Under the pieces are notes generated by a model, which ran no database searches, was not told the origin of the DNA, and saw nothing but the letters and a program-made list of their open reading frames with translations. The position numbers and the translations under genes were made by a program. From an uncultured Candidatus Saccharibacteria bacterium (GTDB lineage: Bacteria > Patescibacteriota > Saccharimonadia > Saccharimonadales > JAUPVS01), in contig CAYPFM010000003.1 in the NCBI GenBank assembly GCA_964410185.1, forward strand, positions 18,437 through 82,436: a stretch of 64,000 nucleotides of DNA, in the 5' to 3' direction. Below are positions 6,063-30,139 of the stretch, piece by piece (position 1 is the stretch's first letter; the number at the start of each line of letters is the position of its first letter).

Positions 6063-6640
6063 TACTTGGACTCCTTTTCGAATGGCATACCGAACTTTTC
6101 GAGCAAGGCTCGGCTGTCGGCGGGACGGTGTGCCTTAATAACAAAGATGACTTGCAAACCATGTGGGGTGGTCGTTTCTTCAAACGACAATTCTGGGAAG
6201 GCTGACTGGTCGGTAAAGCCGAGGCTGTAGTTGCCTTGGCGGTCAAAGGCCTTAGCGCTCACACCATGGAAGTCACGCAAGCGTGGCAGCACAATGTTGA
6301 TCAGGCGGTCGGTAAATTCGTACATTTGATCGTTTCGCAAGGTGACCTTGAGGCCGATTTTGTTGCCTTCGCGCAGCTTGAATGAGGCGATTGACAGGCG
6401 AGCGGCTGTTTCCAGTGGTTGTTGACCAGTAATCTTGCGCAAGGTGTTGCTGGCTACAGTCATCAGCTTCTTGTCGTCCTTAGCCTTACCAAGACCAACG
6501 TTAACGACAATCTTTTCAAGCTTTGGTACCTGGTTGACGTTATCGAGCTTGAGCTCTTTCTGCAATTCAGCAACCAGCTTCTCTTTGTAGAGCTGCTTCA
6601 GGCGAGCGGTTGTAACTGGTGTTGCTGCTTTAGTAGCCAT
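6062..6640 (-). CDS. rplE: 50S ribosomal protein L5
   Basis: 192 aa. L5-like sequence with spc-operon synteny. Confidence 0.95.
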
Positions 6641-6990
6641 TACTTGATCTCCTTGCCGGTGCTCTTAGCAACACGGACTTTATTTCCCTTGGTGTCGACC
6701 TTGTAGCCGATGCGGGTTGCCTTCTTGGCGGTAGCGTCGTAGTAGCCGACCTTTGATACATCGATTGGCTTAGTGAGCTCAACGATGTCACCTTGGGGGT
6801 GTTCGCGGGTTGGTTTAACGTGCTTCTTAACGATGTTAATACCTTCGACGGTAACTTTATTCAGGCTTGGGTGAACGGCAGTAATTTTACCGGTTTTACC
6901 CTTGTACTTGCCAGCACGAACGACGATGGTGTCACCTTTCATGAGGCGGATTTTAGTTACTGCTGGCTTGGCGTTGGTTGGTTTACTCAT
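6640..6990 (-). CDS. rplX: 50S ribosomal protein L24
   Basis: 116 aa with a KOW motif (KGDTIVVRAGKYKGKTGKI). Confidence 0.95.
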   Translation of the reverse strand: MSKPTNAKPAVTKIRLMKGDTIVVRAGKYKGKTGKITAVHPSLNKVTVEGINIVKKHVKPTREHPQGDIVELTKPIDVSKVGYYDATAKKATRIGYKVDTKGNKVRVAKSTGKEIK

Positions 6991-10771: not shown

Positions 10772-11445
10772 TACTTGGCCTCCGCTTTCTTGGCCGCAGG
10801 CTTAGCAGCAGGCTTCTCGTTCAACCAATCACTCACAGCAGTTAAGCCGGCGTTGGTGATGATGATGGAGTGAGCGTTAACAATGTCATAGACGTTTAAG
10901 TAACGAGCCTGGACAACTTTGACGTAGCCCAGGTTGCTGGTAGCGCGGGTCAGTTCAGGAGTCTTAGAGTCAACAACGACCAGGACACCGCGGTTAGCAC
11001 CGAGTTTGTCGAGCAGCTTAACGGCATCAGCAGTTTTACCTGATTTAACGTCGAAAGCTTCGATAACAGCAACTTTGTTGTCGGTAGCAGCCATGCTCAA
11101 GGCCTGCTTCGTAGCACGGCGCTTGGAGCTGGTGGTAATCTTTTGGGTGTAGTTTTCGTGACCGGTTGGACCAAAAACGATACCACCACCGCGCCAGATT
11201 GGGTTACGGCTCGAGCCGAAACGTGCGCGACCGGTTCCCTTTTGCTTCCATGGCTTCTTACCACCACCACTGACGAGACCACGGGTCTTGACGTTAGCAG
11301 CCGCGGAACGGCCATTGGCCAGGTAGGCAACGTAGGCCTGCTTGATGAGTTCGTGGCTGGAAACGTCGACGGCAAAAATGTTCTTGTCGAGCTTGGCAGG
11401 AGTAGTAGCTTTGCTGCCTGATTTTGTATAGGTTGCAATCGCCAT
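10771..11445 (-). CDS. rplD: 50S ribosomal protein L4
   Basis: 224 aa containing the L4 motif GGGKKPWKQKGTGRAR. Confidence 0.96.
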   Translation of the reverse strand: MAIATYTKSGSKATTPAKLDKNIFAVDVSSHELIKQAYVAYLANGRSAAANVKTRGLVSGGGKKPWKQKGTGRARFGSSRNPIWRGGGIVFGPTGHENYTQKITTSSKRRATKQALSMAATDNKVAVIEAFDVKSGKTADAVKLLDKLGANRGVLVVVDSKTPELTRATSNLGYVKVVQARYLNVYDIVNAHSIIITNAGLTAVSDWLNEKPAAKPAAKKAEAK

Positions 11446-12068
11446 TACTTATTCTCCTTCTTTCCACGAATCAAAACGACGCTCTTGCGGGGGCCAGGAA
11501 CGGCTCCAGAAACACCAATGATGTTGCGCTCAGCGTCGATTAACGTGACTTTTAGGTTTTGGATGGTGACTTGTTCGTGACCCATCTGTCCGGCCATCTT
11601 CTTACCCTTAAAAATGTGCTGTGGATACATTGATCCAATTGAGCCTGGTTGACGGGTATTTCCCTTACCACCGTGCGTTTTGCGCTGGCGGTGGAAGTTG
11701 TGGCGCTTGATAGTACCGGCCCAACCCTTACCCTTACTGGTACCAGTAACGTCTACGGCGTCACCAATTGAAAAGACCTCGGTGGTTAGCTGGGTGCCGA
11801 CCTTGAGGTCTTCGGTAATTTCGTCGACGCGGAACTCGCGTACAATCTTTGGCATCACGTTGGCTGGCTTAAAGTGGCCGGCTTGGGCTTTGCCCATTTT
11901 TTTGTCTTCCTCGTAACCGAGCTGAACCGCGGTATAACCGTCGATGGCATCAGTTTTGACCTGCGTGATGGTGCAGGGGCTAGCGGAAAGCAAAGTAATA
12001 GCAGTCACGGTACCGTCTTCTGCGATGGTACTGGTCATGCCGACTTTTCGGGTGATAAGTGCTTTCAT
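11445..12068 (-). CDS. rplC: 50S ribosomal protein L3
   Basis: The L3 sequence begins MKALITRKVGMTS. I trimmed the track ORF (to 12098) to the ATG at 12068, which matches the usual L3 N-terminus. Confidence 0.93.
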   Translation of the reverse strand: MKALITRKVGMTSTIAEDGTVTAITLLSASPCTITQVKTDAIDGYTAVQLGYEEDKKMGKAQAGHFKPANVMPKIVREFRVDEITEDLKVGTQLTTEVFSIGDAVDVTGTSKGKGWAGTIKRHNFHRQRKTHGGKGNTRQPGSIGSMYPQHIFKGKKMAGQMGHEQVTIQNLKVTLIDAERNIIGVSGAVPGPRKSVVLIRGKKENK

Positions 12069-12326
12069 AGTTCTTTCTTTAGTTAGTTTATTGCTCACTA
12101 TTTTTTGAGCATTTGCATAAAAATGCTTGGTTACTAGTGGTTTCTACCTCTGTTATTGGGAGGTGGACCTGCTAATTGACCAAGTAAAACTTTTCTCTGC
12201 AATCTACTCAAAATTGAGATACCATAACAGAGTACCACGCGCCGCCCACTCCTGTCAATATGTTGCAAAAACTACTTCATTCATCAAAGGGTGGCTTTTT
12301 TGGCTTTTTCGTGGTATAATAGCTTT

Positions 12327-12926
12327 ATGTCACTTACCTTGCCGTCCCCTGATTATGCCGGGGCTGTTGATCCAGATCATTTTGCCCGCTTTTGTGGCTT
12401 GTACGAAGCGAGGCCTCGTCGAGCCATTCCAGAAATGGAAGCGTACGACCGCATGCTTGTTCAGGAAGCCGACCTTTTACTCGAACCGGTCAGAAGCAAC
12501 CTCAGCGGGACGACAACTTTTGCTGTTGGTGGTTTCCGGGTCGTCACCTACGAACCGACATTGCCAGATCAATCCTTTGGCGGTTCTTATACTGGGGAAT
12601 GGCATGTCGATGGGGTCCCTGATGACGGAGCCATCGAAACCCTCATTGCTGACATCCAGACAACCGAGGCGTTGAGCGGAGAACTCGATCTGGACAAGCT
12701 TGGCTGGTCAGGCAATCAAGTCGATGACGCTCTAGCAGAAGTATTGGCCGGGCACGATGATCAAACACTGGTCGACGGCTATGGTCTCACCATCCATGAT
12801 GGCATGCCAACACACACCGCACTAGTTTCTGCCGAAAGCTTGGTTCATCGTTCTCCGGCGAATAAAACCGGACAATTAGTCACACGTAACCTTTTGGTCG
12901 CCAAGTTTATTCCAGTCGATAACTAG
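12327..12926 (+). CDS. hypothetical protein (orf211); distant paralog of orf204 with an HxD...H...R signature
   Basis: Long ORF. TATAAT at 12315-12320 lies 6 nt before the ATG at 12327, suggesting a leaderless start. Motifs WHVD, DALAE, LVHRSPA and RNLLVAKF are shared with orf204. No family is securely recognised. Confidence 0.6.
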   Translation: MSLTLPSPDYAGAVDPDHFARFCGLYEARPRRAIPEMEAYDRMLVQEADLLLEPVRSNLSGTTTFAVGGFRVVTYEPTLPDQSFGGSYTGEWHVDGVPDDGAIETLIADIQTTEALSGELDLDKLGWSGNQVDDALAEVLAGHDDQTLVDGYGLTIHDGMPTHTALVSAESLVHRSPANKTGQLVTRNLLVAKFIPVDN

Positions 12927-13201
12927 AGCGCGATTGTTAACCCGAGCGGCAACCACAAGCCTACGAACATTGCCATCAGTAGGACGGCATATTCAATCTT
13001 GCGATCAAGCTGGAAATGTTCGTGACTAGCAAATACCAGCCCGATAATCAGGCCAACCGGTATTGGAATGACGGAGCCGTTACGATCGATACGCACCCAA
13101 AACGAACCAATAATCAGATACATCACCAGCTTTAAGAAGTAGGTGCTATCGATTTCTTTGGTTGGTTTGCGAGTTTTTGATTTCGTTTTAGCTTTAACCA
13201 T
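12923..13201 (-). CDS. small hypothetical membrane protein (orf94)
   Basis: A basic N-terminus followed by 2-3 hydrophobic helices. TATACT lies 7 nt before the ATG at 13201. Its stop shares the tetranucleotide CTAG (12923-12926) with the orf211 stop. Confidence 0.55.
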   Translation of the reverse strand: MVKAKTKSKTRKPTKEIDSTYFLKLVMYLIIGSFWVRIDRNGSVIPIPVGLIIGLVFASHEHFQLDRKIEYAVLLMAMFVGLWLPLGLTIAL

Positions 13202-13245
13202 AAGCAATAGTATAGCAATCTAGGGTGTTATAGACTAACCCTGCT

Positions 13246-13860
13246 ATGACACACCTGTTACCAGAAGGCTTGCACAAAGTAGGCCACGCAGACGAAGACG
13301 TATTTTTGCGCATTGACCAGCTACTCAAAGAAGCAGCTCCAAATACCGAACGCCTATCTTTCGTTAAACTTGCGGGGCACCAACAAAAAGGCTTTTCGGC
13401 CAGTCAACAAGAATCGATCGAGGCCATCTTCACGCCCTTTGTGGCGGACCTCGATACGCCTTACACCGAACTATCTCTGGGCATCGATCTCCGTGGCCAA
13501 GCATACTATGGGCGACAGGAGGCGCAAAGGCAGTCGTTTTGGCATAGCGAAGCATCGTCTCGTTCACTGTCTAACATTGGTCACTTGGGGACCTGGTTTT
13601 TAGTAGATCAACGTTCGTGTAATCCAAACGCAGGGCTTCGTGCTCTCACCGGAACCATGTTGGCGCAAGAGTATGGCATGGATCCGGTCGAGTTAAGCGA
13701 ACTACCAAGCGATGCGTTGGCAGAAGCAGGCTTGGCAATCTACCAAGCTACACCAGGTAGCATTATTGACTATTCTGGAGTTTTGCACCGCGTACCGGCA
13801 GACTTATACGATAACCCTGACTGTGGTCAGAGAATATTCGCGCGCGTAACGGTATTTTGA
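13246..13860 (+). CDS. hypothetical protein (orf204); distant paralog of orf211 with an HxE...H...R signature
   Basis: 204 aa ORF carrying WHSE, DALAE, VLHRVPA and RIFARVTVF. Its stop (13858-13860) directly abuts the convergent rpsJ stop (13861-13863). Confidence 0.6.
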   Translation: MTHLLPEGLHKVGHADEDVFLRIDQLLKEAAPNTERLSFVKLAGHQQKGFSASQQESIEAIFTPFVADLDTPYTELSLGIDLRGQAYYGRQEAQRQSFWHSEASSRSLSNIGHLGTWFLVDQRSCNPNAGLRALTGTMLAQEYGMDPVELSELPSDALAEAGLAIYQATPGSIIDYSGVLHRVPADLYDNPDCGQRIFARVTVF

Positions 13861-14208
13861 TTACATTTTGATTTCGGCGTCGCAGCCGGCTGGCAAGGAA
13901 AGATTCATCAAGCTATCGATGGTCTTTGGAGTTGGCTCCAAAACGTCGATGATGCGCTTGTGAATGCGCATTTCGAACTGTTCACGACCCTTCTTGAAAA
14001 CGTGTGGGCTCTTAACAACTGTGTAAACAGTCTTCTTGGTAGGCAGTGGGATTGGACCGGCAATAGTAGCGCCGGTGCGCAATGCGGTGTCGACAATCTG
14101 CTTGGCAGACTGGTCGATTACTTTGTGGTCGTAGGCCTTTAGGCGAATACGAATCCGCTGCTTACCAACTTCTGTTTTTGGGGCTGGTGTTTTTTTGGCT
14201 TCTGCCAT
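13861..14208 (-). CDS. rpsJ: 30S ribosomal protein S10 with a short Lys/Pro-rich N-terminal extension
   Basis: S10 core [29 protein letters not shown] lies 8 nt before the ATG at 14208. The track ORF start at 14235 is probably too long. Confidence 0.94.
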
Positions 14209-14311: not shown

Positions 14312-14656
14312 TCAGTCGGGTTGTCTATCGGGATATCCGTTGACGGCCTGCCGATCTTCGGCGTAAAGGTGTCGCAGCGGTGAACTTATGCGATCCAAGT
14401 TATTCGCCAACGCAGCTGCTTCAACTGGCAGCATCGGGCCGTCATAGTCAACAGGGAAACTAAACGCACCTTCGAGTCTGGCGGCCTCGCCTTCAACATC
14501 GACTTGAGTGCCAGGGTCGACGTGCAACTCCTTCACAACTAATCCAATCAGGCTCCAGGTGTGCACGACGGTTTTTCCTTCGGCAGCTTTTCGAAACTGC
14601 TCGGCCGTTGTCATGGCGAGTGTTTGGCGTACGTCTTCTTGTGTTACTTCTGACAA
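14312..14656 (-). CDS. hypothetical acidic protein (orf114)
   Basis: 114 aa ORF. TTG start preceded by AGGAG at 7 nt. It begins 10 nt after the orf85 stop. No recognisable motif. Confidence 0.55.
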   Translation of the reverse strand: MSEVTQEDVRQTLAMTTAEQFRKAAEGKTVVHTWSLIGLVVKELHVDPGTQVDVEGEAARLEGAFSFPVDYDGPMLPVEAAALANNLDRISSPLRHLYAEDRQAVNGYPDRQPD

Positions 14657-14666
14657 TGCATTACTC

Positions 14667-14924
14667 CTATTCGACTATCCGTTGGACTTGTCGTTCTTTT
14701 GAAAGCTCGATGATAATCCCTTCTACCGCTGCCACTTGAGGATCCCAGTCTAAACGAAGCTGGTCCGGGTAAACGACCGCTCCCTTCCTGACTTCTGGAT
14801 AGTCAGTGTCCCAACAAAATGCCTCGCCAATTCTAACATCGGCCTTTTGTAGCATTCGTCGGTAGGCTGTTTCAGAATAATCACTGACGCCTTCTGCTGG
14901 GGAACCATAACTCATCATATACAT
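14667..14924 (-). CDS. hypothetical acidic protein (orf85)
   Basis: 85 aa ORF. TATAGT (14927-14932) sits just upstream, so the ATG at 14918 (8 nt downstream of it) may be a leaderless start. No recognisable motif. Confidence 0.5.
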   Translation of the reverse strand: MYMMSYGSPAEGVSDYSETAYRRMLQKADVRIGEAFCWDTDYPEVRKGAVVYPDQLRLDWDPQVAAVEGIIIELSKERQVQRIVE

Positions 14925-29694: not shown

Positions 29695-30139
29695 TTCCAG
29701 CTTGTACATGCTCAGCCGCGTTAGCCGTGGCATGCAAAGCTGATACTACAGAAAGTGGATTAAATTCCACCTCATGGAAGCCACGGGGGCCAGCAACAAG
29801 CCGATCGCGCGAGAGCTCATCATGATTTACGGCATGAGACAAAACTCGTTCACCACGAAGGTATGTAATGTGGCCATCCAGTTCGTCGCGCGAGAAATTC
29901 ACTGTTACGGTCTGCTCAGTAGCTTCATCGAGCAATAACTTCGTAACAACAATCCTGCCACCATCTGAGCCAGTATGAACGTCGAAAGTCCGGGGGTATA
30001 AACTAAATTCCCCATTTTGCCCGTTGAGCTGAACACGGTTAACGTGATGCTCTGACAAAGCCCAAAATGGACTATGGAACGGTTTAATTAGTCGCTTTGC
30101 ACCTGTCAGTTGTGGTTTTGGAAAGGCTAGTTCACTCAT
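29690..30139 (-). CDS. hypothetical protein (orf149) between tig and clpP
   Basis: 149 aa ORF with its own promoter, TTGCGT-N16-TATACT (30169-30174 and 30147-30152). The -10 lies 7 nt before the ATG, suggesting a leaderless start. No recognisable motif. Confidence 0.6.
   Translation of the reverse strand: MSELAFPKPQLTGAKRLIKPFHSPFWALSEHHVNRVQLNGQNGEFSLYPRTFDVHTGSDGGRIVVTKLLLDEATEQTVTVNFSRDELDGHITYLRGERVLSHAVNHDELSRDRLVAGPRGFHEVEFNPLSVVSALHATANAAEHVQAGS

Follow-up and report, generated by a model that had tools for sequence, protein, structure and literature searches.

The DNA considered here is a stretch of 64,000 nucleotides (nt), hereafter the window, from an uncultured Candidatus Saccharibacteria bacterium (assembly GCA_964410185.1, contig CAYPFM010000003.1, positions 18,437 to 82,436 of the forward strand), and its subject is a small island of genes that parts rpsJ from rplC. 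The region is part of the rpoBC–str–S10–spc ribosomal cluster, which here runs on the minus strand, of a member of the Candidatus Saccharibacteria (TM7); the closest relatives of its S10 protein, in contigs taken from GTDB with one genome per species, are all from metagenome-assembled genomes of Candidatus Saccharibacteria or Saccharimonadales with 77–94% amino acid (aa) identity. rpsJ (13861-14208, minus strand; uS10, Pfam Ribosomal_S10 E = 5.3e-35) has a GGAG Shine-Dalgarno (SD) sequence and a promoter-like site at 14327-14299, and rplC (11445-12068, minus strand; uL3, Pfam Ribosomal_L3 E = 2.8e-15) is the first gene downstream of the island, its product sharing 98% aa identity with that of the close relative L001. 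Between the two lie the open reading frames (ORFs) orf211, orf94 and orf204, all present where a first-pass annotation of the sequence had placed them; its description of an opposite-strand trio holds for orf211 and orf204, which are on the plus strand, but not for orf94, which is on the operon strand.

The frame of orf211 is open from 12291 to 12926, and gene calls in relatives point to the ATG at 12327 as its likely start (12327-12926, 199 aa). Those calls likewise favour the ATG at 13201 for orf94, a small membrane protein whose open frame is 12923-13207 and whose likely extent is 12923-13201 (92 aa), and orf204 occupies 13246-13860. The packing is extreme, with the CTAG at 12923-12926 common to the stop of orf211 (TAG, 12924-12926) and that of orf94 (the reverse complement of 12923-12925), and the stop of orf204 (TGA, 13858-13860) directly abutting that of rpsJ (TTA, 13861-13863). 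No terminator-like site was found in a consensus scan of either tail-to-tail junction (orf211/orf94 and orf204/rpsJ), and in this too the sequence and the scan bear out what had been described.

The interval between rpsJ and rplC

Across 71 Saccharibacteria species loci the distance between rpsJ and rplC varies from 138 bp to 5.4 kb and the number of ORFs it holds from 0 to 7. Homologues of orf94 apart, the ORFs of at least 80 aa in these gaps (n = 123) are mostly unrelated to each other, 90 of them lying on the operon strand versus 33 on the opposite strand, and clustering them together with seven ORFs of the window and relatives left 84 of the total of 130 as singletons. One family of about 150-175 aa does recur on the operon strand, with 9 members, and the cargo as judged by eye, without a Pfam scan, includes a guanylate-kinase-like protein, an α/β-hydrolase, a VanY-like peptidase and acyltransferases. 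The gap is a general hypervariable slot in Saccharibacteria, and because it holds such unrelated cargo elsewhere, a location in it is by itself no sign of a ribosomal function.

Of the 71 gaps, 38 hold a homologue of orf94 (E = 1e-21 to 1e-39), in each case on the operon strand. The protein is rich in Lys at its N-terminus and carries the motif HEHFQIDRKIEYA, and the gene is widespread in Saccharibacteria also without orf211 or orf204 beside it, usually between rpsJ and rplC. Its apparent loss in L086 was discarded as a difference of gene calling only, the DNA being identical to that of L085. Between the window and L001 the ratio of nonsynonymous to synonymous substitution rates (dN/dS) of orf94 is 0.006, which indicates very strong purifying selection and compares with 0.008 for rpsJ, 0.04 for rplC and 0.13 for orf211. 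Searches of Pfam, NCBIfam and PDB gave no match to orf94, and its family appears to be specific to Saccharibacteria.

The same comparison gives an example of recent turnover. The window and L001 are 85% identical in nt over the stretch from rplC to orf94 and 92% identical over rpsJ, yet between these flanks of 85-92% identity homology breaks (13161-13855 of the window versus 3936-4765 of L001), and where the window has orf204 on the plus strand L001 has an unrelated gene of 247 aa, orf247, on the minus strand. As L001 holds an unrelated gene there and the breaks fall exactly at the 5′ end of orf94 and at the rpsJ stop, the slot of orf204 turns over, in this instance by a recent swap of cassettes between close relatives. 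Saccharibacteria are naturally competent (PMC10633639), and the conserved flanks of the slot (rpsJ, orf94 and the rplC leader described below) may favour the exchange of cassettes by homologous recombination.

A hypervariable slot with a recent cassette swap, fast-evolving genes and a naturally competent host might also be expected if the whole trio were horizontally acquired mobile, defence or toxin-immunity cargo, with the membrane protein as effector or immunity partner. This is improbable; neither PADLOC nor PHROGs gave a match, no flanking direct or inverted repeats and no integrase were found around the island of the window, the GC content of the island matches that of its surroundings, and orf94 is both strongly constrained and widespread without the other two genes.

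A second interval upstream of rpsJ may be of the same kind. Two more ORFans (114 and 85 aa, both on the operon strand) lie between tuf and rpsJ (14312-14924, minus strand), neither with a match in Pfam or NCBIfam, and the spacing of tuf and rpsJ also differs widely among loci, which suggests that this interval is a second variable slot.

The orf211 family and its relation to orf204

The homologue of orf211 in L001 is 74% identical at the aa level over an alignment with no gaps. Differences between the two genes fall 34/24/100 by codon position, and because change is dominated by third positions, dN/dS is 0.13 and there are no insertions or deletions, orf211 is a real gene. It is however a fast-evolving one, its dN of 0.17 being 6-45 times the 0.004–0.03 of its neighbours.

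A word-indexed homologue search with orf211 returned only this single relative. With a profile of the two sequences, HMMER run over all of 1.84 billion cluster representatives gave five further proteins of 200–243 aa (P0004, P0007, P0008, P0011 and P0012; E = 5e-39 to 4e-5), and two more divergent members were found in GTDB loci (L077 7121–7753 and L068 6373–6981). Matches to giant proteins (P0005, P0006, P0013 and others) were discarded as artefacts in which weak matches to repeats are summed, the repeats being unrelated SprB and leucine-rich ones; a scan of metagenomes for extra members gave one short spurious match (L091), and tblastn against plasmids found nothing. Seven family sequences, 23–74% identical, have invariant positions that include W92, H93, D95, H174, R175, P177, N179 and R187, and with ten members (18–74% identical) W92, H93, D95, H174, R175 and R187 stay invariant, with P161 and N179 nearly so. 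The conserved core is thus WHxD…HRxPxN…R, and the residues singled out beforehand, from orf211 and orf204 only, are exactly the positions that do not vary in the real family. Neither the members nor their consensus had any relevant match in Pfam, NCBIfam, PADLOC or PHROGs, and sequence and profile searches of PDB with the family alignments gave nothing significant. As far as these searches reach, the family is one that has not been described before and is restricted to Saccharibacteria.

Its position is conserved too. All members whose context can be read lie in the gap between rpsJ and rplC on the strand opposite to the operon (P0003, P0004, P0008, P0012, P0007 and those of L077 and L068), the first five adjoining rplC, and this synteny is kept by proteins of 26-40% identity (P0004, P0008, P0012, P0007); P0011 is on a contig of 1 kb that offers no usable context. 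Members mostly converge on a gene of the orf94 type, the exception being P0008, which has an unrelated neighbour, and the overlap of stops in a 4-nt CTAG recurs in L001 and L092. The locus L092 has the order rplC (minus), P0007 (plus), an 87-aa homologue of orf94 (minus), orf202 (plus) and rpsJ (minus), and although its orf211 homologue is only about 28% identical to that of the window the layout is the same. The 3′ end of orf202 overlaps that of rpsJ by 11 nt, and its product is an unambiguous member of the family (E = 7.9e-24 to the profile; WHAD…GLSIYQ…HRSPKNK…R). Since L092 carries the trio with two clear members, the layout of two paralogs around a membrane gene is an old and conserved one, and the question of whether relatives keep the trio, which had been raised from the window, is answered by this locus. 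The family is patchy nevertheless, being present in 2 of 80 species representatives.

Whether orf204 belongs to the family is a harder question. It has the core in modified form, with WHSE (13540-13551), HRVPAD (13786-13803) and R196 (13831-13833) where orf211 has WHVD (12600-12611), HRSPAN (12846-12863) and R187 (12885-12887), and the two His are 81 residues apart in both, with the Arg 13 residues after the second His in orf211 and 15 in orf204, just as the first-pass annotation had counted. W, H, H, R, P and R are collinear, H100, E102, H181 and R196 being the residues concerned, and the spacing of 82 from W to the distal H is that of the family. The GLAIYQATP of orf204 matches the GLTIxQxxP of the family and an N-terminal LP..G..D..F is common to both, giving five collinear family motifs in all. 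A shared [DS]DALAE, which had also been put forward, did not survive; it belongs to an acidic insert that is neither conserved nor collinear and is no motif of the family.

The statistics of this likeness are uneven. Direct BLASTP of orf211 and orf204 falls short of significance (E = 0.078 over 27 aa), and among 3056 six-frame ORFs from the window and 90 loci family profiles score orf204 at 5.4–8.8 bits (E = 0.23–2.3), with the ten-member profile giving 8.8 bits and E = 0.23 and making it the best non-member. However, only 2–4 of 5000 composition-preserving shuffles reach the profile score of orf204 (2 of 5000 with the ten-member profile, p ~4e-4), hhalign against the family gives a P-value that falls from 0.048 to 0.0044 with deeper profiles, with WH, GLxIxQxxP and HRxP in register, and within the same ORF set a WHx[DE] with a later H[RK]xP is confined to family members and orf204. 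Moreover orf204 has the slot, strand and size of L092 orf202 and of the L068 member at 6373-6981. The claim that the two are distant paralogs finds no significant support in the pairwise comparison and stands on the shuffles, the profile alignment and the slot.

Several points weigh against it. orf204 had no homologue other than itself in a word-indexed search of 5.8 billion proteins, its E-value of 0.23 in 3056 ORFs is by itself not significant database-wise, its core has E in place of D and D in place of N, with the Arg two residues further on, and its codon usage is atypical; of the six frames its own scores best for codon usage, yet at -0.06 this is within the range of shadow ORFs and compares with 0.10–0.75 for genuine genes. 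Together with the unrelated minus-strand orf247 that L001 has in the slot, they could be read to mean that orf204 is the remnant of a gene in decay, or an ORF arisen by chance in a recently swapped segment, its motif a coincidence. That is unlikely, given a frame of 204 codons that is the only long ORF of its span with no alternative above 45 aa, a GC content by codon position (0.61/0.43/0.49) equal to that of orf211, the five collinear motifs and shuffle result, and the family members that L092 and L068 have at this position and on this strand. On the evidence of its sequence and position, orf204 is probably a highly divergent paralog of orf211.

A putative metal site

The invariant residues of the family are those that might be expected of an enzyme that binds iron. 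H93, D95 and H174, invariant in the ten members, form at the level of sequence the HxD/E...H pattern of a facial triad, and R187, which follows the distal His by 13 residues, does not vary in the family and has its equivalent in R196 of orf204 (15 residues after). In Fe(II)/2-oxoglutarate (2OG) dioxygenases, which have a double-stranded beta-helix (DSBH) fold, a basic residue placed about 10-17 residues beyond the distal His binds the C5 carboxylate of 2OG, and R187 may have this role. The nearest likeness is to the PhyH family (PF05721), in which a C-terminal signature, H-x-S-x-x-N-x-[ST]-...-R, is matched by the orf211 family; the motif after the distal His is HGSGQNKTQGFR in PHYH (2A1X), HKSKQNLSDRSR in PHYHD1, HSAGANSTDEPR in SnoN, HMAEANTSDSVR in SnoK and HYAGPNLTDQPR in EvdO2, as against HR[SA]PxNxT….R in the orf211 family. 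Both have a (W)HxD, then the distal His-x-S/A-x-x-N-x-S/T with the Arg 11-13 residues later, and some 12 residues ahead of that His a hydrophobic stretch, strand-like and containing P or G. They differ in that the Arg is at +11 in PhyH proteins and +13 here, in length (about 250-310 aa versus about 200 aa here, with the two His 81 residues apart), in the lack of any significant sequence or profile match, and in that orf204 (HRVPADLY) is without the S and N positions and keeps only H, R and P of the signature.

The first half of the motif has parallels of its own, the WHxD of the family resembling PWHQD in EvdO2 and NWHTD in TauD. In E. coli TauD (1GQW), of the TauD/TfdA group, the metal motif is WH[TS]D and the distal His is followed 11 residues on by an Arg, but the two His are about 156 residues apart where those of the orf211 family are 81. 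The sequences used for human PHYH and E. coli TauD are 100% identical to 2A1X (308 residues) and 1GQW, and profiles of PhyH (five sequences) and TauD were built from PDB sequences. With hhalign the PhyH profile scored 18.3–19.7 against the family (P = 0.07–0.09), the top of 15 comparisons; the best local alignment is of the C-terminal motif, and its extension aligns WHxD with HQD. The TauD profile scored 17.2 (P = 0.13), with a best match that aligns just 13 N-terminal columns.

Against a reading as oxygenases it must be said that the PhyH score is only marginally above those of 13 controls (9.6–16.5), which were unrelated families, forward and reversed, and reversed PhyH and TauD. No 2OG family in Pfam matched any of the ten members or their consensus at E <= 10, NCBIfam gave none, and profile searches of PDB for similarity to 2OG oxygenases were empty; the best PDB match of the C-terminal profile, 9wyh, is described as 'Oxidoreductase' and has the same motif pattern, but at E = 0.7 it proves nothing. 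The models of AlphaFold2 were unusable, with a mean pLDDT (its per-residue confidence) of 46 for orf204 from a single sequence and 35 for orf211 from an alignment of two, and Foldseek of these low-confidence models against PDB gave only noise (E >= 0.07, TM-score <= 0.28).

It is thus a distinct possibility that the family is real but no DSBH or 2OG oxygenase at all, its conserved residues serving another fold or function, such as that of a binding protein or of a different metal-dependent enzyme (a hydrolase or transferase), and its PhyH-like motif being convergent or coincidental. The empty searches and the hhalign scores, which are not clearly above the controls for either PhyH or TauD, would fit this, as would the substantial helix that the low-confidence models predict between the motifs, and 199 aa with the His residues 81 apart is at the short end for PhyH-like enzymes. 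Yet the combination of a collinear HxD, distal His, Arg at +13 and HxSxxNx[ST] is a specific one common to five solved PhyH-type enzymes, and the WHxD is the motif of TauD too. We tentatively read the orf211 family as having a metal centre of the Fe(II)/2OG dioxygenase type, closest in motif to PhyH, and give this slightly less than an even chance.

If the chemistry is that of an oxygenase, it might act on the ribosome or on a translation factor. In bacteria RoxA/YcfD acts on uL16 and PPHD on EF-Tu, both being small enzymes of the 2OG-oxygenase type, and the first-pass annotation had noted that some such oxygenases hydroxylate ribosomal proteins or translation factors. A position inside the S10 cluster that is kept at 26% identity, together with the oxygenase-like motif, might suggest that orf211 and orf204 are hydroxylases of the ribosome or of a translation factor tied to the operon that hosts them. 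The link found no support; the gap is a variable slot that elsewhere holds unrelated genes, such as those that by eye, without a Pfam scan, resemble a kinase, a hydrolase and an acyltransferase. The patchiness of the family and a dN many times that of its neighbours are unlike a core ribosome-modifying enzyme. Furthermore RoxA/YcfD and PPHD are of the JmjC or P4H type and detectable with Pfam, whereas the orf211 family is without a Pfam match, without similarity to either type of ribosomal oxygenase and without any sign of a ribosomal substrate; oxygenases of the RoxA/YcfD type combine a JmjC/cupin catalytic domain with a winged-helix domain, whereas the members of the family, of about 200 aa, gave no match to JmjC or Cupin_4. 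A ribosomal substrate for orf211 or orf204 is highly unlikely, and so is a pair of hydroxylases tied in this way to their host operon.

The rplC leader and expression of the island

Between the variable genes and rplC there is a further conserved element, a structured RNA leader at 12117-12184 (minus strand; 75.1 bits and E = 3.7e-15 with covariance model R1). It consists of three stacked helices closed by CUUGGNN/NNCCAAG (hairpin 12126-12184) and followed by the U-run CAUUUUUAU (12117-12125), an arrangement like that of a terminator or attenuator, and it carries a conserved AACAGAGGUAGAAACC strand. The hairpin includes the 14-mer CAGAGGTAGAAACC, which 21 loci have without a mismatch, upstream of rplC wherever rplC was located. 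In an alignment of 27 sequences the structure of 20 pairs in three helices has 92% of cells paired, versus 29–46% with slid partners, and 11 pairs show compensatory changes, values that none of 500 shuffles reached. Plain RNAalifold on a loosely trimmed alignment found almost no structure, so that a trimmed alignment with an explicit structure is needed to see it.

When the window and 84 loci were searched with the covariance model, 70 of the 85 sequences had exactly one match each, on the strand of rplC and with its 3′ end a median of 47 nt before the rplC start (66 loci with rplC located). The leader is present even in gaps of only about 185 bp (L013, L052), and because it is kept there it is ancestral, with the variable genes placed between it and rpsJ.

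No match to the leader was found in Rfam 15. The leader of the E. coli S10 operon is the site of attenuation mediated by L4. A 2020 survey of ribosomal leaders lists before rplC only the archaeal L4 leader candidate of Archaeoglobi (PMC7247131). The Saccharibacteria leader is like both in being a structured, terminator-like leader before the string of genes that starts rplC-rplD, but is unlike them in sequence, in structure and in following rpsJ rather than preceding it. By analogy it is a candidate attenuator that would respond to a ribosomal protein, perhaps uL4.

About 30-70 nt before the leader hairpin a second copy of the ACAGAGGTAG-like sequence (TTGACAGAGGTAGG...CTGTTAyGGTATmTm) makes up a small hairpin, present at about 12216-12262 (minus strand) of the window and in L005, L014, L020, L040 and L074. 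It is followed by a -10-like TATCTC/TATATA (12216-12221 in the window), and this upstream element may be the promoter of the leader or part of a larger RNA domain.

The island genes appear to have promoters of their own. An extended -10 box, TGgTATAAT (12312-12320, plus strand), ends 6 nt before the ATG of orf211, and TATAAT or TAATAT is likewise found 6–8 nt before the ATG of orf211-type genes in L001, L068, L085 and L088. For orf94 there is a TATACT (13209-13214, minus strand) 7 nt before the ATG, with TACAAT at 6 nt in L001 and TATAAT at 7 nt in L085. Because each of the two has its own -10 box 6-7 nt before the ATG, orf211 and orf94 are probably independent transcription units with leaderless messages. 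Many first genes of units in the window have -10 boxes of the form (TGC)TATACT/TATAAT placed 6–10 nt from the ATG and no SD, whereas its ribosomal genes by contrast carry an SD of the GGAG type; this suggests that leaderless mRNAs are widespread in this genome. Examples of the leaderless type are seen upstream of the genes at 30139, 31467, 37230 and 38451 and of those on the side of 58613. The promoter of orf204 is weaker and uncertain, with a -10-like TATAGA (13229-13234, plus strand) 11 nt upstream.

One other ORF of this part of the window, of 182 codons with a TTG start (12127-12675, plus strand), overlaps the rplC leader, the orf211 promoter and, out of frame, orf211 itself. As a gene it was rejected, its codon score of -0.45 being that of a shadow ORF.

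As the tail-to-tail overlaps are without terminators, transcription of orf204 is expected to run antisense into rpsJ and that of orf211 into orf94, and the reverse. The account that we prefer, which is tentative as a whole and put at a little below evens, is that the stretch from the rpsJ stop to the structured rplC leader is a long-lived slot for variable genes, filled in this lineage by operon-strand orf94 flanked by the opposite-strand orf211 and orf204 of about 200 codons each, with orf211 converging on orf94 and orf204 on rpsJ. The two would be old and very divergent paralogs with a His-Asp-His triad and a 2OG-binding Arg of the Fe(II)/2OG dioxygenase type. Antisense transcription from them would collide with that of rpsJ and orf94, and orf211 and orf204 may then be expressed mainly when transcription of the ribosomal genes is low. 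Further than this lies the improbable idea that the locus encodes a highly divergent, Saccharibacteria-specific pair of Fe(II)/2OG oxygenases with a membrane partner, set antisense in the S10 operon and, through convergent transcription without terminators, expressed reciprocally to ribosomal protein synthesis, which acts on the translation apparatus or the envelope in slow growth as a switch that senses oxygen or a metabolite and is wired into the ribosomal operon of an ultra-small epibiont.

What is new here is the orf211 family, the way it is stably embedded antisense within the S10 cluster, and the leader RNA of rplC. Saccharibacteria, as members of the Candidate Phyla Radiation or Patescibacteria, have tiny genomes whose accessory genes are mostly of no known function. 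Defined here are a new protein family whose putative metal site is sharply conserved and a small membrane protein that is conserved as well. The layout is unusual and yet stable, with antisense genes placed tail-to-tail within the most conserved operon of the genome, and the locus is a natural place in which to test how transcription can interfere with that of a ribosomal operon. The gap between rpsJ and rplC is a hot spot of gene turnover that may serve as a neutral or cargo site in current genetic systems for these bacteria, and the rplC leader is a well-supported candidate for a cis-regulator of ribosomal protein synthesis across the phylum. If the oxygenase chemistry is true, the orf211 family would add a new and very divergent branch to the 2OG-oxygenase superfamily, in epibionts that are largely fermentative.

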